A stretch of DNA of 64,000 bases, from contig JAFTQC010000069.1 in NCBI GenBank assembly GCA_017462965.1, forward strand, positions 4,277 through 68,276, written 5' to 3'. Every line of letters begins with the position of its first letter. Position 1 is the first letter of the stretch. This DNA is from Clostridia bacterium (GTDB taxonomy: Bacteria; Bacillota; Clostridia; TANB77; UBA1234). Position numbers and translations under genes: made by a program. The notes under the pieces were generated by a model. The model searched no databases, was not told where the DNA came from, and worked only from the letters and a program-made list of their open reading frames with translations. This document shows positions 4,180 to 59,768 of the stretch, in pieces.

Positions 4180-4243
4180 GGACAAGGGGACGGTTCTCTT
4201 GTCCATTTTTTTTCGTCCACGAGGGACGTCCGTTAAATGGACG
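4180..4243. repeat. GGGACGG-core palindromic elements: B-module hairpin ggacaaggggacggttctcttgtcc plus T-run (terminator of upstream ORF), then D-module cgtccacgagggacgtccgttaaatggacg
   Basis: Perfect inverted repeats read directly. The D-module recurs as an inverse copy at 46649-46680 with 1 mismatch. Confidence 0.85.
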
Positions 4244-4370
4244 ATTTTATGTAATCAAAAAATAAATCAGAGTTTCTAGCAGGATTTTTAAAAGTTTTGT
4301 AGTAATTATAAATTTAGTTGGGTAAAATATCCAACATTCATTACTAGAAATAGAAAGGACGTGCGTTTTA

Positions 4371-10986: not shown

Positions 10987-11565
10987 ATGGAAATAATAAG
11001 TGTTATGATGACACTTATTATTTTTTTGTTTATAATTAGCTTCCTAATTATACTGTCTTTGGTTTATAAAATAAAAGCAAAAGCGCGAATAAATATTAAT
11101 GGTGGGAAAATCGATGTATCATTTGAAATAATGAATAAAAAATATAACAAATCAAAAGAATTAAATATTTATAATTTGTTTTTAGAAAAATTCTTAAAAA
11201 AAGAGGGTGCAAAAGACATAGATGTTCCTAAAAATCAATTAGATACGCTTTTTAAAGAAATTCGTGATGTTGCATCACTTGTAAAAGTAGAGACATTAAA
11301 CGCGTCTTTTATACTTGGAACGCCGTTTGTTGCATCGACGGTATTTTCTAATGTTATAGCTTCGACACTAATTCCAATAGCATATCAAAAACTATTTGAT
11401 GGTAGTGGAAAATTAATTTATAAAGTTGTTCCAGATTATAATGATTTTAAATTTAAAGGAAACGTGGAAATTTCTTTTTTTATAACGACATTCCAAATTT
11501 TATTAGTATATATTTGGCTAAAAAAGAAAAATAATAAGTATAAGAAAAAGGAGGAGAGCAGATGA
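10987..11565 (+). CDS. YtfI-like membrane protein (DUF2953-like)
   Basis: Hydrophobic N-terminus. Stop overlaps the ytfJ start by 4 nt (translationally coupled), as in the ytfI-ytfJ operon. Confidence 0.5.
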   Translation: MEIISVMMTLIIFLFIISFLIILSLVYKIKAKARININGGKIDVSFEIMNKKYNKSKELNIYNLFLEKFLKKEGAKDIDVPKNQLDTLFKEIRDVASLVKVETLNASFILGTPFVASTVFSNVIASTLIPIAYQKLFDGSGKLIYKVVPDYNDFKFKGNVEISFFITTFQILLVYIWLKKKNNKYKKKEESR

Positions 11566-12029
11566 ATAATCATCCAATAGAAGGTCTTATGAATACGGCC
11601 ATGAATAATTTAAGGGATATGATTGATGTCAACACTATTGTTGGTGAAGCGATTGAAACTATTGATGGAACGGTTATAATTCCAATATCAAGAGTAAGTT
11701 TTGGCTTTGCAGCAGGTGGAAGTGAATTTTTAGGGGAAGCAGTAGATAATTATAAAAAAGAGGGAATGGATGAAAACATAACATATCGTTTGCCGTTTGG
11801 TGGCGGAAGTGGAGCAGGAGTTAATATATCACCAGTTGGATTTATAATTGTCGGGGGAAATGAAGGAATGAGTTGTCCTAAATTTATTCCAGTAGATCAT
11901 TGCAATGCGCTTGATAAACTATTAGATTATGTTCCAAATATTTTAGAAAAAATAGCTCCATGTAATTCAAAGAAAGATTCGAAAGAATGTAATTGTGGTA
12001 GTGGAGAATGTCACAAAGAAGAAGAATAA
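11562..12029 (+). CDS. ytfJ: sporulation protein YtfJ (GerW family)
   Basis: MNNHPIEGLMNTAMNNLRDMIDVNTIVGEAIETIDGTVIIPISRVSFGFAAGGSE matches the YtfJ/GerW N-terminus. Bidirectional hairpin terminator at 12039-12063. Confidence 0.8.
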   Translation: MNNHPIEGLMNTAMNNLRDMIDVNTIVGEAIETIDGTVIIPISRVSFGFAAGGSEFLGEAVDNYKKEGMDENITYRLPFGGGSGAGVNISPVGFIIVGGNEGMSCPKFIPVDHCNALDKLLDYVPNILEKIAPCNSKKDSKECNCGSGECHKEEE

Positions 12030-16647: not shown

Positions 16648-18408
16648 TTATACCATGTTGACATGATAACTCATGTCGTTTTCGGAGTGTTCGAAGTGCA
16701 AGTGCATGGTTGCAACTTCATAGGCAATGTTCGTCTGATGCGTCGCGAAGAGTACGACCTTGTCAGTGCACATTTCTTTGATGAAGCGAAGAACCTGAAG
16801 ACCAATTTCATCGTTAAGGTTATTGGTTGCTTCATCGAACGCAACAATCTGAACGGTGTCGTCAAGATTCATCAGTGTGCGAGCGAGTGAGAGGCGCTGA
16901 ACCTGTCCGCTCGAATACTGATCGGTACCACTATTGTCCAGGAAAGCGAAGACATCATCGGTCTTTTCGCTGATTTCCTGATACAGATGCAGTCCACAGA
17001 GAATCTGGAGGAGCTTTTCGCGGTCATAATCAGCCTTGCCGAGCGTGATTTCTTTCAAGATAGAGTTGGAACCGAGCATAGTCTTGTCCTGATGAAGGAT
17101 AGACTTAGTGTTTCCTTCTTTTTCTTTCTCGATGTTCAATGCGAAACCATCAAAGTGAAGATTGCTAGTAAGCATCTTGATGAGAGTGCTTTTGCCAGAA
17201 CCTGTGGTTCCAGTGAGAACAGCAAAATCACCAGGCTTCATGCTGATAATGTCGCTTGAAATGAGTTCGAAAGGCTGGTTGCCGTTCGTTGACGCATAGG
17301 TGACACGGAATGCGGGCAGAGAGAGTCTCGACAGTCGAGTAACTTCGAGATCATCGTTTTCGGTTTGCTTTTCGTAAACCGCAAAGATGTTGTCAAAGTC
17401 ATTCTCATAAACCAAACGCTCTTCCTTAATTTCACGCCAGTTATCACCAATATAAATAAAACCGCTGATTCGACGAGTGAATTGAGAATAAATTGTGACC
17501 AACGAAATTGCGCTGACCAGAGTCTCAAGGTTCACATTCGCAAAACCAACTTCCCAAATCTTGAGGGCAAGAAGTGAGAGTGTGAAGAAGCTTGTAGCAA
17601 GGTTGCTGACCGTACGAATAAGATTGATGCGTCTTTGAACGGTTCGTTGCAACAGGAAGCTTTTTTTGCTTGCATCAACGTAGTTGTTGGTGATAAAGAG
17701 CGCATGCTCATTGCTTATGGGCTCAAGTAGCATGATGTTCTGTCGTGCTTCCTCAGTAATCATTCGAGCTTTTCTCTGCTGATTGCGATAAGTATTTCGC
17801 GTTTTCAGTCTGATGTTGCAGAAGAGCAACTCGAAGATAGAAGAAACGATGACCAGAATGATGAAGATGCCAGTGTGTTCAACTTCAAGAGTTGACACTG
17901 CCAAAAGACCAATGAACATAATAACGGCAGAAACAATGTCGATGCCGTTCCTGAGGAAAAACGTACGGATTTCCCAAGTGTTTGCGAGGAATTCGTGACA
18001 TGTCTTGAGAATCTTACTCGAAGGCATCTTCTCGTCGAAGCCTTGCAGTTCATTTCGGTGCTGGACTTTTCCCTTAACACGAAGCAGAACATCGGCTGCA
18101 TTTTTGGTCAGGAAAATGTCCTTGTGTTCTCTGAAGATATCTTCACGTTCTTCAACAAAGGTTCGAGTAAAGTTCTCGAGAGGGAACTTCACGTAGTGAA
18201 GCGAAATGAGCACCAGAGAAAGAACTACATGTCCTTCAATCATCGCATTCTTGCTAAACTGCAAGAGGAAGGAGCCGGCGTCCATCATAAGACCAAAAGC
18301 GAGATTGATCAGAGTCAGGATAATGAACTCCTTCAGAAGTTCACGCGGCATTTGGAGAAACGTGGAACGCTTATTCATAAAAAACCTCCAGTTGTGTGTC
18401 ATAACCAA
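16648..18408 (-). CDS. ABC exporter, fused permease/ATP-binding protein
   Basis: N-terminal TM domain plus C-terminal NBD. Walker A GTTGSGKST, signature SSGQVQRLSLAR, Walker B IVAFDEAT, H-loop FATHQ. Visibly GC-richer than flanks. Terminator 16601-16634. Confidence 0.8.
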   Translation of the reverse strand: MVMTHNWRFFMNKRSTFLQMPRELLKEFIILTLINLAFGLMMDAGSFLLQFSKNAMIEGHVVLSLVLISLHYVKFPLENFTRTFVEEREDIFREHKDIFLTKNAADVLLRVKGKVQHRNELQGFDEKMPSSKILKTCHEFLANTWEIRTFFLRNGIDIVSAVIMFIGLLAVSTLEVEHTGIFIILVIVSSIFELLFCNIRLKTRNTYRNQQRKARMITEEARQNIMLLEPISNEHALFITNNYVDASKKSFLLQRTVQRRINLIRTVSNLATSFFTLSLLALKIWEVGFANVNLETLVSAISLVTIYSQFTRRISGFIYIGDNWREIKEERLVYENDFDNIFAVYEKQTENDDLEVTRLSRLSLPAFRVTYASTNGNQPFELISSDIISMKPGDFAVLTGTTGSGKSTLIKMLTSNLHFDGFALNIEKEKEGNTKSILHQDKTMLGSNSILKEITLGKADYDREKLLQILCGLHLYQEISEKTDDVFAFLDNSGTDQYSSGQVQRLSLARTLMNLDDTVQIVAFDEATNNLNDEIGLQVLRFIKEMCTDKVVLFATHQTNIAYEVATMHLHFEHSENDMSYHVNMV

Positions 18409-18697: not shown

Positions 18698-18765
18698 TTT
18701 TTCGTTGCAAATCAGTGTGATGAGCATGGTTAGAATAAACTTTGCTAAGTAGAGGAGGAAGACGC

Positions 18766-19758
18766 ATGAACAAGGAAAGATGTGAACTTTGTAACCGTAT
18801 TTTGAATCCGGAGATTGCTCTTGGAGGAGCAGATTTTGCCAGATTTGGTCAGATTTGTCGGAAGTGTCTGGAAGACTTAAGAAGTAGGGATGAATATGCG
18901 TATGATGAACATGGGCATATGCTTACACCCGAAAAGAACAATTTTTCATTTTGGTTTCCTAAGGTTGAACATTGTGGGCTGAAAGTGCCAAAATCACTGA
19001 TATTCAACGTGCCTGAAGAAATTCAGAATCGTTTTTTCTTGGAAGGCGAAGATGATTACGAAGTCATTGATAATTGGCTTAAGGTGAGTGTACTTCCTGC
19101 TTTGAAAGAAGCGGATATGCATTTACTTTTTGTGAAGAATGCGACATTCAGTAATAAGTTTCTTGCGACGAGTTGTATGGCTACACAGCATACGCTTCTT
19201 GATGCGATTACTTCAATTAACTATGGAGCGTTGATGGTTGGCGCAGAAGGATTATCAGAATTTGTTGTGCGTGAACGCATTATGCATAATAGTCAAAGTA
19301 CACCGTGCATTTACCATGGCCTTCCTCTTAGGTCTGAATTCAGAGTTTTCTATGATTTCACGAAGCACAAGGTAATTTTTATAGAGAATTACTGGAATTA
19401 CGGCTATGTATTTCCGAATCTGCACGATGCTACAGACAAGATTGTTTTTGAGCACGAAAGAGAACGTCTTGAAAGAGAATTTGATAGCAGAAAGCAGGAA
19501 GTCTCTGAACTTGTCGCAAGTGCAATGCAGAATGTAGAGGGTTTCGAAGGTCCTTGGAGCGTAGATATTATGCTTGAAGGAAATACATATTATCTGATCG
19601 ATATGGCGCTTGCTGAAACGTCCGCGTATTGGACGAATAGACCTGGTTATGAACGAGTTCATGCGCGTGAACTCGAAGTACGAAACAGAAGGAGACAGCA
19701 GTTGAGACCTGCTGCTGTGACTAAGCTAGATCCAGCAATAGTTGAACTTCTTGAATAA
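18766..19758 (+). CDS. hypothetical protein with N-terminal CxxC...CxxC zinc-ribbon (331 aa)
   Basis: CELCNRI...CRKC at N-terminus. GC-richer than host. Sigma-A-like promoter TTGACA/TATAAT at 18668-18697, RBS gaggagg. Terminator hairpin 19774-19809. Confidence 0.55.
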   Translation: MNKERCELCNRILNPEIALGGADFARFGQICRKCLEDLRSRDEYAYDEHGHMLTPEKNNFSFWFPKVEHCGLKVPKSLIFNVPEEIQNRFFLEGEDDYEVIDNWLKVSVLPALKEADMHLLFVKNATFSNKFLATSCMATQHTLLDAITSINYGALMVGAEGLSEFVVRERIMHNSQSTPCIYHGLPLRSEFRVFYDFTKHKVIFIENYWNYGYVFPNLHDATDKIVFEHERERLEREFDSRKQEVSELVASAMQNVEGFEGPWSVDIMLEGNTYYLIDMALAETSAYWTNRPGYERVHARELEVRNRRRQQLRPAAVTKLDPAIVELLE

Positions 19759-36111: not shown

Positions 36112-37422
36112 ATGAAAAAAATACTTATAAAAGATGTATTACCTGATTCAATTGCTGAAGAGATGGAAATTGAGGCTGGTGACTATTTATTAACGATTAA
36201 TGATACTGAAATTAAGGATATATTGGATTATAAATACCAAATTTTTGATGAATATGTCGTTGTTACCATTGAAAAATCTGATGGAGAAATTTGGGATGTC
36301 GAGATAGAAAAAGAGGAAAATGAAGATTTAGGTCTAGTTTTTGAAGAACAACTTATTGATAAACCAAGAAGTTGCGCGAATAAATGTATTTTTTGCTTTA
36401 TGGATCAATTGCCTCCAAAGGTTCGTGAAACTTTGATTTTCAAAGATGATGATTTTAGACTTTCGTTTATGACGGGAAATTATGTTACATTTACAAATTC
36501 TGGATATAAGGATTTGGATAGAATTATAAATTATCATTTGACGCCTATTAATGTGTCGGTCCATGCTACAGATCCGGAAGTTAGAAAAATGATGCTTAAT
36601 AATAAGAATGCCGGTTTTATATTGGATTACATAAAGTATTTAACTGATCATGGCATCGGAGTAAATGCGCAGATAGTTTTATGCCCTGGTATAAATGATG
36701 GAGAGGTTTTGGATAGAACAATTCGAGAGCTTTCTGAATTTTATCCTAATTTGTTGTCTATAGCTATTGTCCCAGTTGGACTTACTAAATATAGAGAAGG
36801 ATTATACAAATTAGAGGGATTTGACAAGGTTTCTGCGGGAAAGGTAATAGATCAGGTAGAATCATGGCAAAACAAATTTAAGAAAGAGTATGGTGACAAT
36901 CTTGTTTTTTGTGCAGATGAGTTTTATGTAAAAGCTGAGAGAGAAATCCCTGATTCTAGTAGATATGGCAACTTTGAGCAATTGGAAGACGGCATTGGCT
37001 TACTTGCATATTTTACAATGAATTTTAATAAGTCGCTTATGAGATATAAGCCAAGGAAGATTGAAAAGACGGTTTCTATTGCTACAGGAAAGAGTGCATA
37101 TAACTTCATTCGTGAAAAGGCTGATATATTAGAAAAAACGTTTGATGGACTTAAAGTAAATGTTTATGCAATAGAGAATCATTTCTTTGGTCCTGAAATC
37201 ACGGTGACGGGACTAATTACTGGTGGAGATTTGATAGAAGGGTTGAAAAATAAGGAGATTGGCGAATATTTGGTGATAGATCAGAAAATGTTAAAAGATG
37301 ATGAAGACATATTCTTGGATAATCTTACACTAGAAGAAGTAAAAGATAAATTAGGTGTTGAAATTGTAAAGTGTGAATCATTGGGAAATGGTTTTATAAA
37401 GGCGATTATAAATGGAAGGTAA
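36112..37422 (+). CDS. PDZ-domain radical-SAM-like protein (DUF512 family)
   Basis: N-terminal PDZ-like segment. CANKCIFC equals the CxxxCxxC radical-SAM cluster motif. Terminator hairpin 37418-37447. Confidence 0.7.
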   Translation: MKKILIKDVLPDSIAEEMEIEAGDYLLTINDTEIKDILDYKYQIFDEYVVVTIEKSDGEIWDVEIEKEENEDLGLVFEEQLIDKPRSCANKCIFCFMDQLPPKVRETLIFKDDDFRLSFMTGNYVTFTNSGYKDLDRIINYHLTPINVSVHATDPEVRKMMLNNKNAGFILDYIKYLTDHGIGVNAQIVLCPGINDGEVLDRTIRELSEFYPNLLSIAIVPVGLTKYREGLYKLEGFDKVSAGKVIDQVESWQNKFKKEYGDNLVFCADEFYVKAEREIPDSSRYGNFEQLEDGIGLLAYFTMNFNKSLMRYKPRKIEKTVSIATGKSAYNFIREKADILEKTFDGLKVNVYAIENHFFGPEITVTGLITGGDLIEGLKNKEIGEYLVIDQKMLKDDEDIFLDNLTLEEVKDKLGVEIVKCESLGNGFIKAIINGR

Positions 37423-37447
37423 CGTAACATAATACGTTACCTTTTTG
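37418..37447 (+). terminator. terminator of the DUF512 gene
   Basis: ggtaacgt aacataat acgttacc hairpin plus tttttg. Confidence 0.7.
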
Positions 37448-37476
37448 TTGACTTTTGGAATAAATTTCTGTATAAT
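37448..37476 (+). promoter_or_regulatory. AT-rich sigma-A-like promoter driving the 60%-GC gene 37520-38296
   Basis: TTGACT - 17 nt - TATAAT. Confidence 0.55.
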
Positions 37477-37519
37477 AATACTTGGTAGACCCAATAAATT
37501 TTTGAAGGAGGACACAATC

Positions 37520-38296
37520 ATGTCCAAGAACGCAAGGTCCAACAACAACGCCACCCGCAACACTGCCCGACCGACCGCCGCCCGCAATGCTCAGCAGGTG
37601 CGCAAGCAGCCCGCCAAGCACAGCCGCAAGCCTCAGCAGCCCAAGATGGCGAGCTCTAACAAGTGGATGCTCATCATTGGCGTGGGCTTCCTGGCACTCC
37701 GGCTGATCTTCCCGGATCTGATGGCCATCCTGGGTTCGTCCCTGACCGGCCTGACCATCCTGGCAGTCATCGCGATTGTCCTGGCTGTCGCTGCGTACAT
37801 CTACAACCTGTCCGTTCCGGATTTCATCGGAAGCCTCTTTTCTGGGCTCGTCGGTGCCGTGAACAGCAGGAAGCCTCAGAAGCGTCAGGCTCGCCGCGCC
37901 ACCTCGTACTATGAGGAGGACGAGTTCGAGTATGACGAAGAGGTTGTAGAGCCTGATGAGATTCGCTATGCTGACGAATACGACGACTATGACGACTATG
38001 ATGACTCTCCGGTTGTCGAAGCCGTGGTCGTCGAGGAGGAGCCTCCGGTTCCCCAGATGCATCGTCGTCGCAGGCCTGTAGAGGCTGTGGTCGTCGAGGA
38101 GGAGCCTCAGACCCCGTCTTTTGCTGAAGCTGTGCGGATGCAGAAGCCGAGCGTTGAGGTCCCTGAGGGCTACGAGTGGAAGCTGGAAGGCAACAAGTGG
38201 GCGATTCGCCCCATGACGCCGCCGGATATTGACATTCCGGATGGTTTCGAGTGGAAGCTTGATGGTGGCAAGTGGAAGGTTGCCCCGAAGGCTTGA
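37520..38296 (+). CDS. GC-rich membrane protein with basic N-terminus, two TM helices and acidic internally repeated C-terminus
   Basis: About 60% GC by eye, in contrast to the host. Host-like promoter TTGACT-17-TATAAT at 37448-37476 and RBS gaaggagga. Internal repeats PVVEAVVVEEEP x2 and EGYEWKLEGNKWAIRP/DGFEWKLDGGKWKVAP. Confidence 0.6.
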   Translation: MSKNARSNNNATRNTARPTAARNAQQVRKQPAKHSRKPQQPKMASSNKWMLIIGVGFLALRLIFPDLMAILGSSLTGLTILAVIAIVLAVAAYIYNLSVPDFIGSLFSGLVGAVNSRKPQKRQARRATSYYEEDEFEYDEEVVEPDEIRYADEYDDYDDYDDSPVVEAVVVEEEPPVPQMHRRRRPVEAVVVEEEPQTPSFAEAVRMQKPSVEVPEGYEWKLEGNKWAIRPMTPPDIDIPDGFEWKLDGGKWKVAPKA

Positions 38297-38425
38297 TCGG
38301 ACCGACTACCAGGGGCGCTGCGGTGCAGCGCCCTAATCCATTTTAAATTAATCTTTGGAAAGAAATTTCCGAGGTTAATAAGATAAGAAACTCATACACC
38401 ATGACTAACAACAAGGAGGATAAGT

Positions 38426-39094
38426 ATGGAAATTGCTGCAATGATGGATTACAGCGAAATGGACAAGAATTATCAGGGTTTTATGAAGAACTCCTTTGCG
38501 AGAGCAGAGGCTGCCAGAACGGTTATTCAGGATATCGAAAAGCTGTCTGGCCGGTCATTCACGATTGAAGACGCTGCCAAGATTATCGATGTTATCACTT
38601 GGTGCGATATCGAGGATGGCGTTACCGTTTTCATGCCCTCTGATGCCCCGAAGGATAAGCGCTTTGTTGGTAAGGTTGAGCTTCCCACGGAGCACGTACT
38701 TTTTTATTTCGGCAAAAATCGCGCCGCTGGTGCACGATTCCCTTATGCACTGGGTGTGCGCTTCCGGTTCAAGCAGAATCATGAGCTGCTTCGGATGAAT
38801 CTGGAATATGTGAAGAAGGAGTATCCGACCTTTGCAAAGTCCATTCAGGCTGTTGTAACTCCTGACACCGAGTATCAGCTGAAGGTGTATCCGAAAGCTG
38901 CAGAGTTCTATGCTGCAGTCAGACACCTCAAGGGTGAGTGGCTTATCCAGGAGCCGTCTCACAAGGGTCAGTTTGTTCCCAACAGGGGTATTGGCCTCAA
39001 GGAGAAGAACAGCAATGTTATCCACATCTTCGAGCCGCACCCGCGTGTCAAGGCTTCGAGAAAGTATGCGAAGCGAGTCTGCTTTTCTTTTTAA
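38426..39094 (+). CDS. GC-rich hypothetical protein (222 aa)
   Basis: RBS acaaggagga. Terminator hairpin 39131-39160. No motif recognised. Confidence 0.55.
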   Translation: MEIAAMMDYSEMDKNYQGFMKNSFARAEAARTVIQDIEKLSGRSFTIEDAAKIIDVITWCDIEDGVTVFMPSDAPKDKRFVGKVELPTEHVLFYFGKNRAAGARFPYALGVRFRFKQNHELLRMNLEYVKKEYPTFAKSIQAVVTPDTEYQLKVYPKAAEFYAAVRHLKGEWLIQEPSHKGQFVPNRGIGLKEKNSNVIHIFEPHPRVKASRKYAKRVCFSF

Positions 39095-39130
39095 ATAGAA
39101 TCATTCGCGTACAAAAAATAAATAAAAATT

Positions 39131-39161
39131 CAGCCCTTCAGAGATGGAGGGCTGTTTTTTA
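39131..39161 (+). terminator. terminator of the GC-rich 222-aa gene
   Basis: cagccct tcagagatgg agggctg hairpin plus tttttt. Confidence 0.75.
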
Positions 39162-39164
39162 TAC

Positions 39165-39218
39165 AGAAAAACACGTAAAGCCGCCCACCCAATTCCAGGG
39201 TGAAAGCGGCTTTACGTG
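39165..39218 (-). terminator. terminator of the minus-strand 70-aa gene
   Basis: 13-bp perfect stem cacgtaaagccgc/gcggctttacgtg with a plus-strand A-run (minus-strand T-run) adjacent. Confidence 0.7.
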
Positions 39219-39282
39219 CGGTAAAACAAAGATCACGGCCAGCCATTGGTGGCCGTGTCAAGCCTACACAAGGCATGATGTC

Positions 39283-39495
39283 TTAGGTGTCACGCCCGAT
39301 CACGGTGAATCCATCACGGGAATACACGTCGATAGGCGGACGCCAGTAGTTGCGGTTGGGAAACTTCTCCCGATAGGCTTTGATGGAGGGGTGAATAGGA
39401 TCCGTGACTTTTTCTGCCGGATTCTCGACAATTACGACAGGGCAAATGGGTGCGGGAGCCGGGTTGGTGCAGTTGTACTTGTTGTTGTCAGACAT
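39283..39495 (-). CDS. GC-rich small Cys/Pro-containing protein (70 aa) with own promoter and terminator
   Basis: RBS aaggagg. Minus-strand promoter TTGAAA-17-TATTAT (about 39520-39560 plus coords). 13-bp perfect-stem terminator 39172-39218. Confidence 0.5.
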   Translation of the reverse strand: MSDNNKYNCTNPAPAPICPVVIVENPAEKVTDPIHPSIKAYREKFPNRNYWRPPIDVYSRDGFTVIGRDT

Positions 39496-39581
39496 AGAAA
39501 CTTCCTCCTTGAAGAGTTATTTTATCCATTAACATAATAACACAAGTGTACATAAATTTCAATAGCGCAAATTTAAATGGG

Positions 39582-39611
39582 TTGACTTTTTCAAAAAAAA
39601 AGTATATTATT
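39582..39611 (+). promoter_or_regulatory. promoter of the T-box/pheST transcript
   Basis: TTGACT followed by TATATT/TATTAT at 15-18 nt spacing. Confidence 0.5.
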
Positions 39612-39639
39612 ATTACAGTTTTTGGTGTTGATTACATAT

Positions 39640-39885
39640 TTAGTAGTTTGTTTGACCTCTTACAGGAATGAAAAGCCACCGGCTGAGAGCTTTTCAAAGA
39701 TAAACAAATAAATGAATTTCGGATGTAGGAGCCATGTTATGAAAATAACACGTGTTAAGAGCGTTAATCTTTTTCAAGTGTCGATTTGTGCAAGCACGAG
39801 TCGGAATTTGGGTGGTACCGCGATAAGCGCTAAAAATGTTTATTCGTCCCAAGCATGAGAGAAATCCCGTGCTTGGGATTTTTGT
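39640..39885 (+). promoter_or_regulatory. T-box riboswitch leader (Phe specifier) controlling pheST
   Basis: T-box sequence aatttgggtggtaccgcg at 39805-39822. Terminator hairpin 39847-39878 plus T-run. Stem-I-like UGAGA and a UUC(A) specifier candidate near 39690. Promoter TTGACT at 39582. Confidence 0.8.
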
Positions 39886-39898
39886 TGTCTCAAAAAAA

Positions 39899-40033
39899 GG
39901 ACAATGGACAGTTTTTTGGAAATTGGGACGGTTCCTTTTTCCAAATTTAATTAAAGGATTGCTAATTAAAATATATAGTTGTAAATTTGGAAAAAGGAAC
40001 CGTCCCAATTTCCAAAAAAACTAAAAAGGGTCC
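39899..40033. repeat. 135-bp composite palindromic element (31-bp perfect C-module stem) inserted between the T-box terminator and the pheS RBS
   Basis: ggaaattgggacggttcctttttccaaattt at 39918-39948 and its exact reverse complement at 39984-40014. Outer B-like half-sites ggacaatggacag / gggtcc. Confidence 0.9.
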
Positions 40034-43583: not shown

Positions 43584-44066
43584 TTACATGCTGAATTTGT
43601 CGTAGCGCCATACGCAAGCCCAGACGTCCTGTGGTGCTTCGAAAGTGCATTGTCCCAAAATGTCGATAGCTTGCTTGATGAAAGCCTCCTTGAAGACATC
43701 GCGCAGCTTCGGGTTCCAGAAAAAGAGATTCATGACGGGAGTCTCATACTGGATTCGAACTTTTTTGCACATGACCAAAAAGGAGGTTTGCAGCCACCGA
43801 ATAGAGACGTTGGTCAGTTCGGTCTCGTCAGGGAATTCCTTTTGGAGCGCGCTCAGAATGGTCTGGATGGAACGTTTTGCAACGGCCTGAGCAGCAGCTT
43901 CGATACGTTCTTGACGCATGAAGAACGTGACAAAGTTGAGCGTGTTTTGGGCACTGTCACAATAGGTGATGTCGGCATACCTTGATGCAATGTAGTCAAA
44001 GATTGCCACAGCTTTCGCCTGCACCTTTGTGAGTTCCAGTTCCTTTTTTACTTCATTTCTGTTCAT
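43584..44066 (-). CDS. GC-rich hypothetical protein (160 aa)
   Basis: Convergent with pheT. Own hairpin terminator about 43539-43568 preceded by an A-run on the plus strand. Confidence 0.5.
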   Translation of the reverse strand: MNRNEVKKELELTKVQAKAVAIFDYIASRYADITYCDSAQNTLNFVTFFMRQERIEAAAQAVAKRSIQTILSALQKEFPDETELTNVSIRWLQTSFLVMCKKVRIQYETPVMNLFFWNPKLRDVFKEAFIKQAIDILGQCTFEAPQDVWACVWRYDKFSM

Positions 44067-44440
44067 CTCTGATTTTCTCCTTCCTAAAATACGTGGTTTG
44101 CAGGTTTTGAATCGGTGTGCGTTCTTTTGTGTTTTAATCTATGTCCAAATTGCCAAACTTCCACTTAGGAAGAAATGACAAGAAAACTTGTATACATAAT
44201 ATTATAATATAAAACTTGAAAATGAGCAACATATGGGGGTTCAAGTTGAATATATTTGATTGAAAATAATATAAAAGGATGATATACTCGCATTTGTAAG
44301 TAAAGTCTATGATTTTGTGCGAATTGATGCAAATTATAGGCAAAATACAGAAAATGAAGGGAGGATAATTCCGAGATAAATTGTTACGCGACGTGAAGGC
44401 TGTATTCAAAGACGACATAACAATGAAAGGATGAGTGATC

Positions 44441-45778
44441 ATGAAGTTACGCCTTGAAGTTTCTCTGTTGGACGCTTTTGGTGATAGCGAGTTCCTAAAA
44501 CGGATGAATGCATTTAATGCACAGGTGGAACTTGATAGTAAGAAGGGAATCCTTCAAGTATCGAATCTTGATGCTTCTGAGTTCGATGAGATTGTGGAGT
44601 ATATCAAGGGAACATTTAAGGTTCGTAGGGTCGAGATGATTCCTGATGAGCGGAAAGAGCCGTCCACGGTTAAGGTGATGAGTGAGGATGCTATGGAAAA
44701 GAATAGTAAGCCTCAACAAATTGAATTTCCCAGAGCGGAATTCAGTCACAAGCTTATTGAGGAACGTGTGAACAAGTTCCTTCAGGTTGCTGGAATGGCT
44801 ATCAATCGTAACAATGCTGAAGCAAAGTCGATTGCAAGTTTTATTTCTACGGCCATCTGTGAGCTGGCAATGATGTATCATCCGCATCCTTTGGTGGATA
44901 TCAAGGTTGGTGACATAGTTACTTGTAACTATGGTTATCATATGCCTGGTGAGGTTAGCGGCCGGTATGTGCATTCGGTTGTTTGTGCGATTGACGACAG
45001 TCTTGCGTATGTTGTGCCGATTACGAAGGACGCTCGTGACGATGGTGGGGTGAAATTTCTTTCATTCTACAGCGTATATGACGTGACTTATACTGACCCG
45101 ATGTGTAAGGATTACGCTGGTGGTTCCATGCTTTTACAGCATGGCAGGTGGCTGTGTCGTGAACGAATTTCTGGTGTTGTGGGGTATGCGCATCCTCGCT
45201 TCATGAGTGAAATTCTCAGGATTTTGCCAGGGACGTTGTACTTTGCGTATGACGGCTATGAGCAGGTAGAAGAGGATGTATCTGCCGACGACGAACCGGA
45301 TGATTTCGATATTACCGAAATGGAAATTCCGGAACTTCCATTTCTTGATGATGAATCGCCGGAAGTGGAAGCCAAAGAAGTTGCAGTAGAAGAGGTAGAT
45401 GTTCCGAAGTGTTTGAAAAACAGTTCATTGGAAACAGCTCTCTACAAGAAATTTACAGAAGGTCTTAGTCGCATGACCAAGGACATGTCGCTGGATTACA
45501 ACATTAATTTCTTCTGTGAAGCTCTTGGACTTCCGGCTGACGAAGGCCTGCTTCGTGCTGCACTTAAGATTGTAGCTGACATGGAGAAGGTTTCTCAAAT
45601 TTCCATCAAGGCAATTGTTTCTAAGTTTTCTTTGTTTCACGAGACTCTGGAGCAGCAACTGCAGGAAATTTGGAAAGGATGGCTTGCTAAGCATCCGGAA
45701 ATCAAGGAAGAATATCCGCATGCCAGCTTCTCGTCGATTTGCAGGTTTTTCTTCAAACTTGTCACAATTGAAAAATAA
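44441..45778 (+). CDS. GC-rich hypothetical protein (445 aa), central segment weakly MazF/PemK-barrel-like, acidic linker
   Basis: Divergent from the 160-aa gene. VGDIVTCNYGYHMPGEVSGRYVHSVVCAIDDSLAYVVPITKD has a weak resemblance to Kid/PemK/MazF GDIxxVDF...RPxVVVS..VxPxT. Confidence 0.5.
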   Translation: MKLRLEVSLLDAFGDSEFLKRMNAFNAQVELDSKKGILQVSNLDASEFDEIVEYIKGTFKVRRVEMIPDERKEPSTVKVMSEDAMEKNSKPQQIEFPRAEFSHKLIEERVNKFLQVAGMAINRNNAEAKSIASFISTAICELAMMYHPHPLVDIKVGDIVTCNYGYHMPGEVSGRYVHSVVCAIDDSLAYVVPITKDARDDGGVKFLSFYSVYDVTYTDPMCKDYAGGSMLLQHGRWLCRERISGVVGYAHPRFMSEILRILPGTLYFAYDGYEQVEEDVSADDEPDDFDITEMEIPELPFLDDESPEVEAKEVAVEEVDVPKCLKNSSLETALYKKFTEGLSRMTKDMSLDYNINFFCEALGLPADEGLLRAALKIVADMEKVSQISIKAIVSKFSLFHETLEQQLQEIWKGWLAKHPEIKEEYPHASFSSICRFFFKLVTIEK

Positions 45779-46648: not shown

Positions 46649-46680
46649 TCGTCCATTTAATGGACGTCCCTCGTGGACGA
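46649..46680. repeat. D-module element (tcgtccatttaatggacgtccctcgtggacga), inverse copy of 4214-4243
   Basis: Reverse complement of 4212-4243 with a single mismatch. Confidence 0.85.
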
Positions 46681-49477: not shown

Positions 49478-50032
49478 TCATGCCAACTCCGCAATGCGGG
49501 AGATGGCGGTCTCGATACGTTCATTGATGCCAGCCAGATTCTCATCAGAGCGAATCGTGCCGGCATCATCGGCCTCGTGAAGCATCATCACCTCATGAAT
49601 GAACGCGTCATCCACTTCGATTTCGATGCCAGCCTTCTTCAGGGCCTTCTGACAGAGCTTCGGAACCACGGTATCCGTCTCGTCCTTGTTGATCACGTTG
49701 TAGGGCGTCATGTGGCACAGAATCAGTGCCTTGACGCGCTCGTAACGCGCATCATCGGGAGTCAGGAACTGGCTCAGCTCTTCATCAGTCACCTTTTCGT
49801 GGCCATAGAAGCAGGGCTGATTGATCTTGTTGTATCCCTGTGTACGCGGCTTCGCAATGTCATGCAGGCAGGCTGCGATGAGCATAGCAGAATCAGTAGT
49901 TCTTTTCGCCATCTCGTCGATCACAAGGAGACAGTGCTCCTTGAAATTCTCGAGGTGATACTTACTTACGTGCGGAAGATCTTTATGGTCGTCGAAGAAA
50001 CGAAGAAGAGCAGAAGCGTTGAACATGTACAT
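49478..50032 (-). CDS. HD-domain phosphohydrolase
   Basis: HD motif ACLHDIAKP, ..HE... downstream. Noticeably GC-rich relative to flanks. Shares the bidirectional terminator 49438-49475. Confidence 0.7.
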   Translation of the reverse strand: MYMFNASALLRFFDDHKDLPHVSKYHLENFKEHCLLVIDEMAKRTTDSAMLIAACLHDIAKPRTQGYNKINQPCFYGHEKVTDEELSQFLTPDDARYERVKALILCHMTPYNVINKDETDTVVPKLCQKALKKAGIEIEVDDAFIHEVMMLHEADDAGTIRSDENLAGINERIETAISRIAELA

Positions 50033-54216: not shown

Positions 54217-55305
54217 ATGAGGACGGAGCGGAACATCCTGGTAGCATTCTTGCTGAATGCGTTTTTCTCGGTATTTGAATTGATTGGAGGTATCTTCACT
54301 GGAAGTGTTGCGATTGTTTCAGATGCTGTGCACGACCTGGGCGATGCGCTGAGCATTGGGCTTGCGTACGTGCTTGAAAAGAAGAGCAAGAAGCAGCCGG
54401 ACGGTCAATACACGTATGGTTATGCAAGGTATTCGGTCTTGGGAGCGCTCATTACCAGTACGATTCTGATTGTCGGTTCAGCGTTTGTCATCGCAAATGC
54501 CATTAATCGCATTATCAATCCTGTCGCAATCAATTATGACGGAATGATTATCTTTGCAATTATTGGTGCGAGCGTGAACTTCTTGGCAGCATACTTCACA
54601 CGTGAAGGCGATTCACTCAATCAAAAAGCCGTCAACTTGCATATGCTTGAGGATGTTTTAGGATGGGTAGTTGTCTTAATCGGAGCTGTAACAATGAAGC
54701 TTACCGACTTTGGCATTATCGACCCTGTACTTTCGATTCTCGTCGCAATCTTCATCATGGTAAATGCGCTGAAATCTTATAGGGCGATTCTGGACCTGTT
54801 CTTAGAGAAAATGCCGGCTGGATTTGACATTGAGCGAGTAAGGAAAACCTTGACTGAAGTCGAAGGCGTAAGCGATGTTCACCACATTCACATTTGGAGT
54901 ATGGATGGAATGAGCAACTACGCGACCATGCATGTAGTTTCGGATTCTGACGATGTGGTGCTTTTGAAGCAGACAGTTAGGGGAAAACTGAAAGAACTGG
55001 GTATAAGCCATGTCACACTTGAGATTGAAGGTGCAACTGAAGAATGTGCTGAAAAAGAATGTAATGTTGAAGTGACAACGCATGCACATGGTCATCATCA
55101 CCACCACCATCATCACGGCCATTCGCATACAGGGCATAATGGGCAGTGTGGCTGTCATGAGCATCACCACGACAAACTGATACATTTCAAAGGTGAAACG
55201 AGCTGCAGTTGTTGTTCCACAAAATATAAGAAAATCCCGACGTGGGACCGGCAGGGAAAACATAAGAATCTGTGGTATGACCCGACGAAAAATTCCAAAG
55301 AGTAA
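54217..55305 (+). CDS. cation diffusion facilitator (CDF) family metal exporter with His-rich C-terminal tail
   Basis: Six TM helices, HDLGD motif, cytoplasmic domain, tail HAHGHHHHHHHHGHSHTGHNGQCGCHEHHHD. GC-richer than flanks. Confidence 0.85.
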   Translation: MRTERNILVAFLLNAFFSVFELIGGIFTGSVAIVSDAVHDLGDALSIGLAYVLEKKSKKQPDGQYTYGYARYSVLGALITSTILIVGSAFVIANAINRIINPVAINYDGMIIFAIIGASVNFLAAYFTREGDSLNQKAVNLHMLEDVLGWVVVLIGAVTMKLTDFGIIDPVLSILVAIFIMVNALKSYRAILDLFLEKMPAGFDIERVRKTLTEVEGVSDVHHIHIWSMDGMSNYATMHVVSDSDDVVLLKQTVRGKLKELGISHVTLEIEGATEECAEKECNVEVTTHAHGHHHHHHHHGHSHTGHNGQCGCHEHHHDKLIHFKGETSCSCCSTKYKKIPTWDRQGKHKNLWYDPTKNSKE

Positions 55306-55795: not shown

Positions 55796-56203
55796 ATGAA
55801 AATAGCAGTAACTTATGAAAATGGAGAAATATTTCAACATTTTGGACATTCACAACAATTTAAAATATATGAAATTGATGAAGAAAAAATAGTTAATGAA
55901 AAAATAATAAATACAAACGGAAGTGGACATGGATTATTAGGTGAGCTTCTAATATCTGAATGTGTCAACATTTTAATATGTGGAGGTCTTGGAAGCGGAG
56001 CGAGAAATATTTTAGAAGAGAATAATATAAAAGTATATCCTGGTGTTACAGGAGATGCAGACGAAGCAGTTAAAGATTTTATCGTTGGAAAATTAAAATA
56101 TGATCCAAACAAAAAATGTAATCATCATGGACATAATCATGATCACGATTGTGCAACTCATGATTGCAGTAAAGATAAAGGCGGTTGTACTGGAAATAAA
56201 TAA
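55796..56203 (+). CDS. NifX/NifB-like (dinitrogenase FeMo-cofactor family fold) protein with Cys/His-rich tail
   Basis: MKIAVTYENGEIFQHFGHSQQFKIYEIDE...ILICGGLGSGAR pattern. Tail CNHHGHNHDHDCATHDCS..GGC. Confidence 0.6.
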   Translation: MKIAVTYENGEIFQHFGHSQQFKIYEIDEEKIVNEKIINTNGSGHGLLGELLISECVNILICGGLGSGARNILEENNIKVYPGVTGDADEAVKDFIVGKLKYDPNKKCNHHGHNHDHDCATHDCSKDKGGCTGNK

Positions 56204-56220
56204 AAAGAGGAGAAATGAAA

Positions 56221-56628
56221 ATGTCTAATAGAATGAATAAAGAAGAATTAATAGCTTTAATGAACACATTAAAAATTGACAAAGAAGAATTTTGGGTTTT
56301 ATCGTCTGGTGGGTTAGTTTTAAGAGGAATATATGAAAACGCTGGAGATTTAGATATTGCTGTAACATTTAAAGGATTAGAACAGCTAAAAGAAAATTAT
56401 GAATTAGTAGAAAAAGAAAACGGCTGGTACATCGTAAATGATAAAGTTGAATGCGTTTGTGATGGAAAGTTTGAAGATTTAAAATATAAGCCAGAAAAAT
56501 TAGAGAATGGTTATATGGTTCAAAACATATTTGAATATTTAGAATATTTAAAATCGAGTTCAAGAGAGAAAGATAAGGCGAGAATTCCGATAGTGGAAGG
56601 GTATATAGAAAATTTGAATAGGTTATAA
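56221..56628 (+). CDS. hypothetical protein (135 aa)
   Basis: RBS agaggag 9 nt before the ATG at 56221. Confidence 0.4.
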   Translation: MSNRMNKEELIALMNTLKIDKEEFWVLSSGGLVLRGIYENAGDLDIAVTFKGLEQLKENYELVEKENGWYIVNDKVECVCDGKFEDLKYKPEKLENGYMVQNIFEYLEYLKSSSREKDKARIPIVEGYIENLNRL

Positions 56629-56643
56629 TACGAAGAGGTAGTT

Positions 56644-57369
56644 ATGTTTAATTTTGGTAAAAATATAATTTCCAAATACTATAAAAATATAGTAAAAGAA
56701 ACTAAAAAAGACAAACAATTTTTATATGGGATTAATCCTAAATACAAAAATCAAGAAAATACATTGTTAGAAATGTTTGGCAAATGTGACTCATTTAACA
56801 AGAAAATTCAAATACTTATTATAGCTGATACCCATGGTTGTTTAAAAGAAGATGAATTTCATCAATTTATGATGGAACACAAAGAATATGACGTATGTTT
56901 ATTACTTGGCGACCATAGTATTGGAGATGTAAATACAATCCTCAAATATGTAAACAAAGAAAAAATATATGCTTTACTTGGAAATCATGATTATAATTAT
57001 ATTGATAAATTCAACTTGAAAAATTTAAATGGTGAAATTATCGATATAAATGGAGTAAAATTATTAGGAATTCAAGGAAGTTATAAATATAAAACGGATG
57101 ATTTCCCTTCGTTTACACAAAAAGAGAGCATAGAGTTTTTGAATGATAAAGAAAAAGTAGATATATTAGTAAGTCATGATGCTCCATATGGATTAAGTGA
57201 TATAAATGATGTTGCACATCAAGGTTTATTTGGAATTTTGTATTACTTGTTTAAGAATAAAGTACCATACTGCGTACATGGACATTTACATACACCATAT
57301 AAAAGAGAAATGATAAATGGAACAAAGGTTAATTGCTATAATATGTGTGATTATGTAGAGTTAAAATAA
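56644..57369 (+). CDS. metallophosphoesterase (calcineurin-like phosphoesterase)
   Basis: ILIIADTHGC, LLGDHSIGD, GNHD, ..HGHLH motifs. Confidence 0.7.
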   Translation: MFNFGKNIISKYYKNIVKETKKDKQFLYGINPKYKNQENTLLEMFGKCDSFNKKIQILIIADTHGCLKEDEFHQFMMEHKEYDVCLLLGDHSIGDVNTILKYVNKEKIYALLGNHDYNYIDKFNLKNLNGEIIDINGVKLLGIQGSYKYKTDDFPSFTQKESIEFLNDKEKVDILVSHDAPYGLSDINDVAHQGLFGILYYLFKNKVPYCVHGHLHTPYKREMINGTKVNCYNMCDYVELK

Positions 57370-57973
57370 ATAAAGAATTTGCAAAAGAAGTATGTCTGTA
57401 AAAGGATATACTTTTTTGTTTTTGGTAATTGTTCGATAGAACACTGACCTAGAAGGACAGTTCTTTTCAAAATTGTGGAGTTGGTTGATATGACTGGATT
57501 TGCTAGAGTGTGAGGTGCTTTCGAATTTAGAGAGGTCGGAGAATGTGTGGAGTTTGAAGCGATTTTCAGTCATTGGTTAGTCTTTTTGGGTGATGTGGTT
57601 GAAAGTGTTGGTGTTCAGTCATTTGTGGGGGATGGTTAGTCTTTAATTTGGGTGATTTTTTGAGTGGGTTTTGGTGAGTTTTGGGGAGCATGGAAAGAGT
57701 GGCACGGAAGGTCGGATGCGATATATATGTAAATCAAACAAAAGAATACAGTATAAGGAGTTTAAAATATAATTTATACAGGAAAATATGAATAAATTAG
57801 TATTCTAATGTCTTTATAGATGATATTTAGGAAAATGATTATGTAATTTGTAGTTTTTCTTTTACGATAGAATGAGATACACTAAATTTAGTATTCATAT
57901 GGAAAAAATAATACAATATATGATATAATAAAACACGAAAAGTACTATACAAAAGAAAGAAGAGGTTATTTTA

Positions 57974-58705
57974 ATGTCAAAAATAGAATTATTTAATGAT
58001 GACTGTATGAAAGCAATGCAAAGTATTCAGTCTGATTCTATAGATTTACTGTTAACAGATCCACCATATAATTTGGGGAATTTTATGAAAAATAGAGATA
58101 CAAATTTAAAAAAAATGCGTACCAATTTCTTTGGTGATGCAGGGTGGGATAATTTGGAATTTGAAGAATGGAAAAAAACAATTAATAGTTTTTTTAAAGA
58201 AGCATCGAGAGTGATGAAAATTGGTGGAGCAGCAATTGTATTTATGTCGGCCATAAAAGTTGAAACGGTAATTGAGATAGCAGAAAGTTATGGCTTTTAT
58301 TATAAAACAACAGGAATATGGCATAAGCTTAATCCAATGCCAAGAAATATGAATTTACATTTCGTAAATTCGACAGAATCATGGATTTATTTTATTTATA
58401 AAAAGAAAACAGGAACTTTTAACAATCAATCAAAACTTATACATGATTTTGTTGAAACTTCTGTAGTACCATTAAAAGAAAAAAAATTTGGAAAACATCC
58501 AACACAAAAACCAGAATGTTTAATGAATCATTTTATAGGATTACTTTCAAATGAAGGTGATGTTGTTTTAGATCCTTTTATGGGAAGTGGGACAACAGGT
58601 GTAGTTGCACAACAAATGAATAGAGATTTTATAGGTATAGAATTAGATAACGAATATTATGATATTGCAAAGAAAAGGATAGATGAATATGGAAACAAAA
58701 CCTAA
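57974..58705 (+). CDS. DNA methyltransferase, amino-MTase beta class (N6-adenine or N4-cytosine), R-M subunit M1
   Basis: Motif IV DPPYN near the N-terminus and motif I LDPFMGSGTTGV near the C-terminus (beta-class order). Confidence 0.8.
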   Translation: MSKIELFNDDCMKAMQSIQSDSIDLLLTDPPYNLGNFMKNRDTNLKKMRTNFFGDAGWDNLEFEEWKKTINSFFKEASRVMKIGGAAIVFMSAIKVETVIEIAESYGFYYKTTGIWHKLNPMPRNMNLHFVNSTESWIYFIYKKKTGTFNNQSKLIHDFVETSVVPLKEKKFGKHPTQKPECLMNHFIGLLSNEGDVVLDPFMGSGTTGVVAQQMNRDFIGIELDNEYYDIAKKRIDEYGNKT

Positions 58706-59768
58706 AGTTATTGACTTGTTTGCAGGAGTAGGTGGATTGTCATTAGGATTTGAAAATGCAGGGTTTAACGTGGTATTTGCAAATGAATATGACAGTGATA
58801 TTGCGAATGCGTATAAAGTAAATCATCGAACGACTGAAATGCTTATTGGGGATATAACTAAAATATCTATTAAAGATACTTTTGAAAAATATAAAGATAA
58901 TATAGATGTGATTATTGGTGGTCCTCCATGTCAAGGATTTTCACAAAAAGGAAAAAGATTATCAATTAATGATGAAAGAAACTTTTTATTTAAATATTAC
59001 TATGAAATTGTTAAGTTTGTACGACCAAAGTATTTTGTTATAGAAAATGTGCCCAACATACTTACTACATGCAACGGATATTTTAAGAAGCAAATTATAG
59101 AACTTTTTAATGAACAGGGGTATACGTTAAATATGGATGTCCTTAATGCTGAAAATTATGGAGTCCCACAATCGAGAAGAAGAGCTGTAATAATAGGAAA
59201 ATTAGGTAAAAATTCTGTAGCGTTGCCAGAACCTAATGAGAGAAGAGTATCTATCTGGGAAGCGATAAGCGATTTAGCATACTTGAATTCTGGTGAAGGC
59301 AGAGAAGAACAAGAGTATGTGAAAAATATAGAATCTAATTATCAGAAAATTATGCGAAATAATCAAAAAAAATTATATAATCACGTTGCAACTAAACATT
59401 CTGCTGATGCGTTAAAAAAATTAGAGTTGATTCCTCCAGAATGTGGAAAAGAATGCTTACCAAAAGAACTTTTAACTAAATCTATATATAGTGGTACTTG
59501 GACAAGAATGAATAAGGATGACGTATCGGTAACAATTACTACTAGATTTGATACTCCGTCATCTGGAAAATTTACTCATCCATTTTTGAATAGAGCGATT
59601 ACTGTTAGAGAAGCGGCAAGATTGCAATCATTTCCTGATAATTTTATTTTTTGTGGCTCGAAAACATCACAAATGAAACAAGTTGGTAATGCAGTTCCGC
59701 CTAAACTTGCACAAGCGGTTGCTGAATCAATTATGAAAGATATAGAGGGGGATAAGAAGAAAAAATGA
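58683..59768 (+). CDS. DNA (cytosine-5)-methyltransferase, R-M subunit M2
   Basis: Motif I DLFAGVGG, motif IV GGPPCQGFS, motif VI ENV, C-terminal QVGNAV. Overlaps the M1 stop. Confidence 0.9.
   Translation: MNMETKPKVIDLFAGVGGLSLGFENAGFNVVFANEYDSDIANAYKVNHRTTEMLIGDITKISIKDTFEKYKDNIDVIIGGPPCQGFSQKGKRLSINDERNFLFKYYYEIVKFVRPKYFVIENVPNILTTCNGYFKKQIIELFNEQGYTLNMDVLNAENYGVPQSRRRAVIIGKLGKNSVALPEPNERRVSIWEAISDLAYLNSGEGREEQEYVKNIESNYQKIMRNNQKKLYNHVATKHSADALKKLELIPPECGKECLPKELLTKSIYSGTWTRMNKDDVSVTITTRFDTPSSGKFTHPFLNRAITVREAARLQSFPDNFIFCGSKTSQMKQVGNAVPPKLAQAVAESIMKDIEGDKKKK

Follow-up and report, generated by a model that had tools for sequence, protein, structure and literature searches.

A GC-rich three-gene cassette long resident upstream of pheST in AT-rich Clostridia and the persistence of its atypical codon use

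We examined a block of three genes that lies between the DUF512 gene and pheST of a metagenome-assembled Clostridia bacterium (assembly GCA_017462965.1, contig JAFTQC010000069.1, locus tags IJX99_) and whose composition departs sharply from that of its surroundings. Coordinates refer to the window, the whole 64-kb stretch of DNA that was analyzed (contig positions 4,277 to 68,276, forward strand), and L-numbers (L001, etc.) denote loci or contigs of relatives that were compared with it; the clade is one of AT-rich Clostridia known for the most part from metagenomes of the ruminant gut. The interval 37400-39600 contains three open reading frames (ORFs) and no others: gene 1 (g1; 37520-38296, + strand, 258 amino acids [aa]), gene 2 (g2; 38426-39094, + strand, 222 aa, with the ribosome-binding site [RBS] AAGGAGG at 38413-38419), and gene 3 (g3; 39283-39495, − strand, 70 aa, annotated as hypothetical protein IJX99_10085). 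None of the three matched a family in Pfam, NCBIfam, PHROGs, or PADLOC, and the anti-phage defense models of PADLOC gave 0 matches at an E value of ≤0.01, in agreement with a first-pass annotation of the window, which could place the proteins in no family.

Along the window, the GC content rises from ∼0.30 to ∼0.60 within 100 nucleotides (nt) of position 37500 and falls back to ∼0.30 at ∼39500. GC and the GC fraction of third codon positions (GC3) are 0.59 and 0.73 for g1, 0.49 and 0.57 for g2, and 0.53 and 0.65 for g3, compared with 0.31-0.35 and 0.15-0.26 for the surrounding genes (host values of ∼0.32 and ∼0.2). This bears out the abrupt switch from AT-rich promoters to GC-rich coding sequences described in the first-pass annotation, as well as its statement that the segment 37561-37620 exceeds 70% GC (72%). 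The enrichment is confined to the ORFs: the promoters, leaders, and spacers, the 3′ end of the DUF512 gene, and the T-box leader of pheS are AT-rich, with spacer GC contents, in order, of 30% (upstream), 43%, 45%, and 25% (downstream).

The same separation was found in codon use. A codon adaptation index (CAI)-like measure trained on 34 host genes from the window gave 0.23 for g1, 0.34 for g2, and 0.24 for g3 versus 0.71 ± 0.05 for the host genes (z scores of −8 to −11). In the block, CTG makes up 58% of Leu codons (host, 2%), CGC 35% of Arg codons (host, 2%), ACC 60% of Thr codons (host, 3%), and CAG 100% of Gln codons (host, 14%), while TTA, CAA, CCA, ACA, ATA, and AGT are at 0%, versus 26-86% in the host, whose genes use CTG, CTC, CGC, CCC, ACC, and TCC at 1-3% of the respective codon family. 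The bias acts chiefly against A in the third codon position (A3, the fraction of third positions with A, is 0.05 in g1), T-ending codons being common, and the purine fraction of the block is 0.46-0.52 versus 0.577 ± 0.034 in host genes. The codon style is that of organisms with ∼55-60% GC, which use CTG, CAG, AAG, GAG, and NNC and almost no A-ending codons. Among ∼7 patches of GC-elevated genes in the window, the block is the most extreme.

The block is flanked and punctuated by signals of the host type. The promoter of g1 (TTGACT-17-TATAAT, 37448-37476, + strand) is of the sigma-A type with 11 of 12 consensus matches, which upholds the earlier description of a host-like promoter and RBS; L011, L013, and L006 share it unchanged, L001 has it in conserved form, and in L031 and L029 it can still be recognized. 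The g1 leader (37484-37519, + strand) carries a conserved GGTAGACCCAAT box and the RBS GAAGGAGG at 37504-37511 and is conserved across lineages, L031 included. A terminator-like hairpin after the DUF512 stop codon (37414-37445, + strand) stays with the left edge of the cassette, since L001, which has gatB instead of DUF512 on that side, carries it ahead of the g1 promoter as well. After g1 there is a GC-rich terminator-like hairpin with a weak T-run (38312-38334, + strand), kept in L011, L013, and L001, and between g2 and g3 a bidirectional intrinsic terminator (39131-39154, both strands; 10-bp stem, T6 on the + strand, and an A-run on the other side), while the terminator-like hairpin after g3 (39257-39234, − strand) is part of an RNA element described below. 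The earlier gene calls and terminators therefore hold, with a hairpin and T-run after each gene. The g3 promoter (TTGAAA-17-TATTAT with an extended −10 TG, 39534-39562, − strand; 10 of 12 matches) stands back to back with the pheS promoter and is conserved in L011, L014, and L001. The right boundary is formed by the pheS promoter (39582-39610, + strand) and a probable T-box leader of pheS (39619-39854, + strand). The latter is a full-length match to RF00230 (75.6 bits, E = 6e-16) that was overlooked by a default scan of the whole window because its score falls short of the gathering cutoff (93); L001, L010, L021, L029, and L031 have this T-box after the cassette as well.

Two smaller features were noted beside these signals. 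By eye, the g1-g2 spacer contains a small hairpin (38353-38374, + strand), which in L001 (∼1760-1785) has a different stem, CCTAAGGC-GAAA-GTCTTAGG, and which may be an attenuation or processing mark. In L021 (3047-3250), the promoter of the g1-type gene is followed by a 5′ leader of ∼170 nt that looks structured, the leader in the window being short.

The junctions from DUF512 through g1, g2, and g3 are identical in separate ENA and Logan assemblies, and diverged orthologous junctions occur in L006, L011/L020 (a 213-kb contig of an “uncultured Eubacteriales bacterium”), L013/L014, and L001-L004. Misassembly and contamination are thereby excluded. For the main comparison set of the window, L011, and L013, Nei-Gojobori estimates of synonymous divergence (dS) were 0.78-0.96 for g1 and 0.51-0.93 for g2, and the flanking genes pfk, murD, DUF512, pheS, and pheT have a dS of 0.28-1.19 and a ratio of nonsynonymous to synonymous divergence (dN/dS) of 0.01-0.05, that ratio being 0.22-0.47 for g1 and 0.06-0.10 for g2. 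Given that the dS of the block matches that of the flanks, they diverged together, and the block has been resident since before the species split. The first-pass annotation had called the block inserted; the foreign codon style is borne out, whereas a recent insertion or a strain polymorphism is not what we found, since several species share it at the same site with a dS like that of the flanks.

Beyond this set, the content of the site varies. In L001-L004 the left neighbor is gatB, an AT-rich gene for a metallo-beta-lactamase-fold protein lies between g2 and g3, and the pheS T-box comes after g3. Relatives of g2 with 32-42% identity are still found just upstream of pheST in L021 (in the order DUF512, g1-type gene, g2, pheST), L024/25, L026/27, and L010, and PheS is 85-91% identical across the lineages with these distant relatives. 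L029 and L031, with PheS 96.6% identical to that of the window, have a g1-type zinc-ribbon gene, no g2, and a divergent g3, and in the L036/L037 lineage (PheS identity, 92%) the block is absent and the genes upstream of pheS are unrelated to it. With regard to the presence or absence among related strains that the first-pass annotation had proposed to check, the content of the site varies, and the block itself is shared by diverged species. No integrase, transposase, or repeat boundary was found at the block, PHROGs matches were 0, and searches of proteins, phages, and viral contigs found no donor-like copy. As a separate observation, the L026/L027 lineage has two paralogues (∼242 aa, HGHTHP motif) in the interval from the g2 homologue to pheS (L027, 2567-4093); they look JAB/MPN-like by eye and have no Pfam match.

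The atypical composition has persisted over this divergence. In five lineages g1 has a GC3 of 0.69-0.74, and four g1-type genes that are more distant range from 0.54 to 0.69; across these nine genes (zinc-ribbon alleles and those of L021 and L027 included), A3 lies between 0.04 and 0.13, compared with 0.26-0.48 in host genes; over the span in which this codon style persisted, synonymous sites of host genes are 60-80% saturated. We used a two-state model of neutral decay toward a host equilibrium GC3 of 0.2, fitted to the observed mismatches between G/C (strong, S) and A/T (weak, W) bases. It requires an ancestral GC3 of 0.87-0.95 for g1 in the shallow clade and of 0.92-1.1 for deep comparisons of g2 with L021 and L010. 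When the relaxation factor of the flanks between the window and L021 (0.43-0.64) is applied, the value required for g1 is 0.96-1.3. Polarized synonymous changes on the L011 and L006 branches comprised 34 S>W and 15 W>S, and the ratio expected from the GC3 values and the host equilibrium is ∼11:1 for g1 and ∼4:1 for g2. This excess of S>W below the expectation indicates that decay is visible but slower than neutral. A three-taxon parsimony polarization was dropped as a main argument because it gave an obvious W>S artifact in the flanking genes. In sum, the composition has been retained beyond the neutral expectation, most likely, although this is not proven, through selection that acts on nucleotide or codon content. 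We found no report in the literature of such a retained GC-rich gene composition.

The product of g1 has, in order, a basic disordered N terminus, a transmembrane (TM) helical hairpin, an acidic disordered linker with tandem duplications, and C-terminal repeats. The net charges (+11 for the N terminus and −17 for the C-terminal half) and the two hydrophobic helices confirm the architecture proposed in the first-pass annotation, as do the duplications that it had seen at the DNA level (38014-38045 versus 38077-38108, 91% identity; 38154-38211 versus 38229-38286, 71% identity). An AlphaFold2 (AF2) model, which is confident solely for the helices and the last 60 residues, places helices at 45-63, 65-70, 75-94, and 99-115 and disorder at 1-41 and 118-195, with a C-terminal region (200-258; predicted local distance difference test score [pLDDT] of ∼89) of two beta-hairpin repeats (GYEWKLxGxKW). 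Homologues of g1 form 8 clusters, every one within this clade, and its dN/dS is 0.2-0.6. The name given by NCBI, DUF4118, is not borne out, as a Pfam scan at an E value of ≤1 did not return that family and listed PBP1_TM and DUF3899 alone, both under their cutoffs.

In L029 and L031, the g1-type gene has the promoter, leader, and N-terminal TM module of the window (E = 1e-10 and 6e-7 by hmmsearch), and the C-terminal parts are Cys4 zinc-ribbon repeats. The L031 coding sequence is ∼28% identical to g1 at the protein level and has three DZR/zinc-ribbon repeats after the acidic linker (DZR model match, 3e-18). These alleles thus resemble the membrane-anchored DZR (PF12773) proteins of Firmicutes in joining a g1-type N-terminal TM module to zinc ribbons. 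In contrast, the repeats of the window g1 are Cys-less beta-hairpins with neither a Cys4 motif nor a Pfam match, so that an assignment of g1 to DZR is not borne out either.

The product of g2 is, as judged from its AF2 model (pLDDT of 91.1), a soluble alpha/beta protein of an uncharacterized family. A search of 5.8 billion proteins found 3 close homologues, and an exhaustive profile search of 1.84 billion representatives found 23 clusters at the 50% level; dN/dS is 0.04-0.10. Foldseek of the model against PDB and BFVD gave nothing at an E value of ≤0.001, and its best match, which would have made g2 a VOC/glyoxalase (FosX-like) fold, was rejected for lack of a significant structural superposition. 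A profile search of PDB sequences returned noise alone, matches scattered at chance level were all that a Pfam scan of 22 family members produced, tblastn of g2 and one distant relative against phage genomes found no match, and the g2 alignment, used to scan a genome collection, recovered a single locus that corresponds to the L011 contig.

As for the roles of these proteins, the cassette consists of three separately promoted genes, of which g2 travels with g1. The basic N terminus, acidic linker, and exchangeable C-terminal modules of g1 would all face the cytoplasm. We propose with low confidence that g1 tethers a partner to the membrane by binding it through the C-terminal repeats, soluble g2 being a candidate for that partner. 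With the same low confidence, some part in biological conflict or in an envelope-associated interaction is suggested by the high dN/dS and by the swapping of modules.

Orthologues of g3 are 60-72% identical (dN/dS of 0.15-0.45) and share the conserved core PSIKAY..K.PNR.YWRP..DVY..DG..IGRDT, of which the distant alleles of L029 and L031 retain the C-terminal (V)IGRDT alone. Directly 3′ of g3 lies a two-hairpin RNA element (39166-39262, − strand). Hairpin 1, with the loop CCAAUGG, is followed by AUCUUUGUUUU, and hairpin 2 has a stem of 18-20 bp with the apical sequence CCCUGGAAUUGGG and a U5 tail. The minimum free energy of the element is −61.3 kcal/mol (z = −6.3). In the window, L006, L011, L014, and L001, 91 of its 97 positions (94%) are invariant, at a g3 dS of 0.5-2, and the stretch from the g3 stop codon to hairpin 1 is not conserved. 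A covariance model found a diverged copy in L029 (62 bits) in which both stems have changed and the loops CCAAUGG and CCCUGGAAUUGGG are kept. The resulting alignment of six sequences has 99.4% of cells paired and shows, in 9 of 30 pairs, a change of both partners, a pairing support that exceeds every shuffle and slid control; all nine compensatory changes come from the L029 sequence alone. The element is present in a single copy and is missing from L031, L021, and L010. Rfam gave none at the gathering threshold and chance-level matches only (E > 1). Scans of JGI metagenome contigs and viral contigs yielded 0 matches, and no further diverged copies were therefore added.

The position of the element at the 3′ end of g3 and the long GC-rich stem of hairpin 2 with its U5 run liken it to intrinsic terminators and to small RNAs derived from 3′ untranslated regions (UTRs). 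It differs from these in having two hairpins whose loops and 14-nt spacer are conserved in sequence while the stems covary, and in belonging to no Rfam family. Given the GC-rich stem-loop and U-run, it is predicted to act at least as a tandem terminator. The constraint on it exceeds what termination alone should need, and the sequence conservation of the loops and the spacer suggests a further role.

With moderate confidence, we favor the reading that the block is real and specific to its lineage, a cassette that has long resided at a variable site next to pheST and whose composition has been held away from the host equilibrium, most likely by selection. Genes g1 to g3, or their ancestor, would have come from a GC-richer source and been placed under host sigma-A promoters, after which purifying selection on synonymous or nucleotide content would have kept them off the host equilibrium. 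Possible means of such selection are the tuning of expression through host-rare codons and their tRNAs, or properties of the mRNA; exchange of cassette alleles within the clade may have contributed as an alternative. More tentatively, and on balance doubtfully, selection could hold the three genes GC-rich and A3-poor as a functional device (e.g., through rare tRNAs that decode CNN/GNN codons or through mRNA behavior), and the 3′ element could be a new RNA whose loops are binding sites. Several observations weigh against the favored reading. The amelioration test is not decisive: the short-branch counts are small, the net S>W of 34:15 means that some decay is under way, and a donor with a GC3 of ∼0.9-0.95 would rescue neutral decay in the shallow clade. 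An unsampled GC-rich source is possible, although no homologue was found in a GC-rich context and every context recovered, for the part of the family members that was sampled, has AT-rich flanks. The homology of the g1-type genes of L021 and L027 is one of architecture and position alone. The g2 relatives of L024 and L028 have a near-host GC3 (0.29), so that high GC is not intrinsic to the g2 family. With regard to means, the 64-kb window contains no tRNA gene, and no excess of mRNA structure was seen for g1 (z = −1.4), so that selection for mRNA folding is not supported; the g2 transcript has a folding z score of −4.3 with its own terminator included in the sequence. As context, we used the rule for Rho targets from a preprint on Rho and purine bias (10.1101/2025.08.25.672197), by which g1 is not an obvious target given that its N-terminal half has C > G but is low in T.

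An ancient transfer from a very GC-rich donor (GC3 of ≥0.9) with unfinished neutral amelioration and no selection would account for the foreign codon style and the net S>W excess, fits the shallow clade provided that g1 started from a GC3 of 0.87-0.95, and could explain why the g2 relatives of L024, L028, and L027 (GC3 of 0.29-0.38) look fully or partly ameliorated. We consider it unlikely, as the adjacent g1 and g2 need unlike starting values (0.9 versus 0.6-0.8), the deep comparisons require a GC3 of 0.92-1.1 for g2 (against L021 and L010) and of 0.96-1.3 for g1 (against L021), A3 stays at ≤0.13 in 9 of 9 g1-type genes despite a protein identity of ∼30%, and plain decay toward AT is not expected to leave T-ending codons common and A-ending ones rare. 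Repeated replacement of cassette alleles from an unsampled GC-richer pool, with the conserved promoter, leader, and flanks serving as homology arms of a recombination hotspot, is rather improbable. It would suit the differing cassette content at a PheS identity of 92-97%, the stronger conservation of promoter and leader than of coding sequence, the discordant dS between the window and L011 (2.0 for g3, 0.28 for pheS, and 0.51 for g2), and the DnaB-like helicase fragment (by eye from the translation) that adjoins a g2 paralogue in L024/L025; against it stand the dS of g1 and g2, which tracks the flanks in the window/L011/L013 group, the lack of homologues in GC-rich contexts, phage records, or viral contigs, and the lack of an integrase, transposase, or repeat boundary at the block.

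Local GC-biased mutation or repair, either biased gene conversion at a hotspot or hypermutation by a diversity-generating retroelement (DGR), could draw on the signs of recombination round the locus, the fast evolution of g1 and g3, and the depletion of third-position A. That the enrichment ends at start and stop codons, leaving the DUF512 3′ end, the spacers, and the T-box leader AT-rich, speaks against both biased gene conversion and a mutational bias of the region, and the DGR idea was dropped because no part of the block has a second copy in the 64-kb window that could be the partner in a template/variable repeat pair; no reverse transcriptase was noticed in the window, whose ORFs were not systematically scanned for one. 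We therefore hold local bias to be very improbable. Scarcely credible is a recent genomic island or a chimeric or contaminant assembly. The abrupt compositional edges and the origin of the window from a metagenome-assembled genome could be read that way, but the block lacks a mobility signature, has the same junctions in independent assemblies and orthologous ones in diverged species at a dS equal to that of the flanks, and is read from conserved, host-like promoters and leaders.

Most acquired and orphan genes are AT-rich, and horizontally acquired genes reportedly follow the amelioration model of Lawrence and Ochman. The block is like acquired islets of atypical composition in its sharp anomaly over few genes, its foreign codons, its accessory or unassigned genes, and its variable site. 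It differs from them in being GC-rich in an AT-rich host, in having no mobility genes, tRNA gene, or direct repeats, and in having been coinherited with its flanks over a dS of 0.5-1 and beyond, and it departs from the Lawrence and Ochman model in that its composition has not relaxed as predicted. Should it be maintained by selection, it would be a counterexample to the notions that foreign genes ameliorate and that orphan genes are AT-rich, and a tractable case for the effects of whole-gene codon composition on tRNA-dependent expression, mRNA fate, or transcription. If slow amelioration is all there is, the block is an ordinary old acquisition of modest interest, and interest would be high only with selective maintenance of whole-gene codon composition demonstrated. 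In either case, three uncharacterized protein families restricted to one Clostridia clade are defined, with a confident model for g2 that has no structural neighbor detected in PDB or BFVD, a modular membrane protein in g1 that exchanges its C-terminal repeats from allele to allele, and an RNA motif that is a candidate for a new one.

Control of expression through rare codons is known from bldA/UUA in Streptomyces (PMC4932002) and from clusters of rare Arg codons in a restriction enzyme gene (PMC6456624). The block is similar in that a few accessory genes use codons rare in the host, but in those systems one or a few codons act as the switch, whereas the block is recoded over entire ORFs and its amino acid composition is shifted too. 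Rare-codon or tRNA-dependent control of the block is offered as an analogy only.

Outside the block, the other GC-elevated genes of the window are located at 43584-44066 (−), 44435-45778 (+), 49478-50032 (−), 54217-55305 (+), 16648-18408 (−), and 18742-19758 (+). Their GC3 is 0.34-0.60 and their CAI-like z scores are −4 to −9.5, and most are poor in A3 (0.08-0.26). Three of the six, encoding proteins of 160, 447, and 338 aa, have no Pfam family; the remaining ones encode an HD-domain protein, a cation-efflux transporter, and an ABC/AAA-type ATPase (weak PADLOC mad3 match). The 447-aa gene is kept in L011 at a similar GC3, and in L030, a homologue of the 160-aa gene is located downstream of pheT.

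A near-perfect inverted repeat of ∼115 nt (39909-40024), located between the T-box leader and the RBS of pheS, has the look of a palindrome of the miniature inverted-repeat transposable element (MITE) type; Rfam gave spurious matches to miRNA precursors alone. A family of palindromic insertions with the core GGGACGTCC(G/A)TTAAA was seen in L011 (11413-11545), L014 (9720-9860), L029 (∼5880-5990), and L031 (3440-3470 and 3855-3945), with core matches in the window at 4223-4237 and 46656-46670; in L011 and L014, one copy sits in place of the g2 terminator region.

At the right end of the window, the region 56000-64000 has a GC content of 0.24-0.29 and contains, by eye, ORFs that resemble DNA methyltransferases (DPPY motif, C5-type motif) as well as a gene of P-loop ATPase-like appearance; it may be a restriction-modification or McrBC-type island. 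In the left part, the ORF 11562-12029 (within 10987-12029) looks YtfJ/GerW-like by eye and its upstream neighbor perhaps YtfI-like; if the YtfJ/GerW-like reading holds, the organism may form spores.

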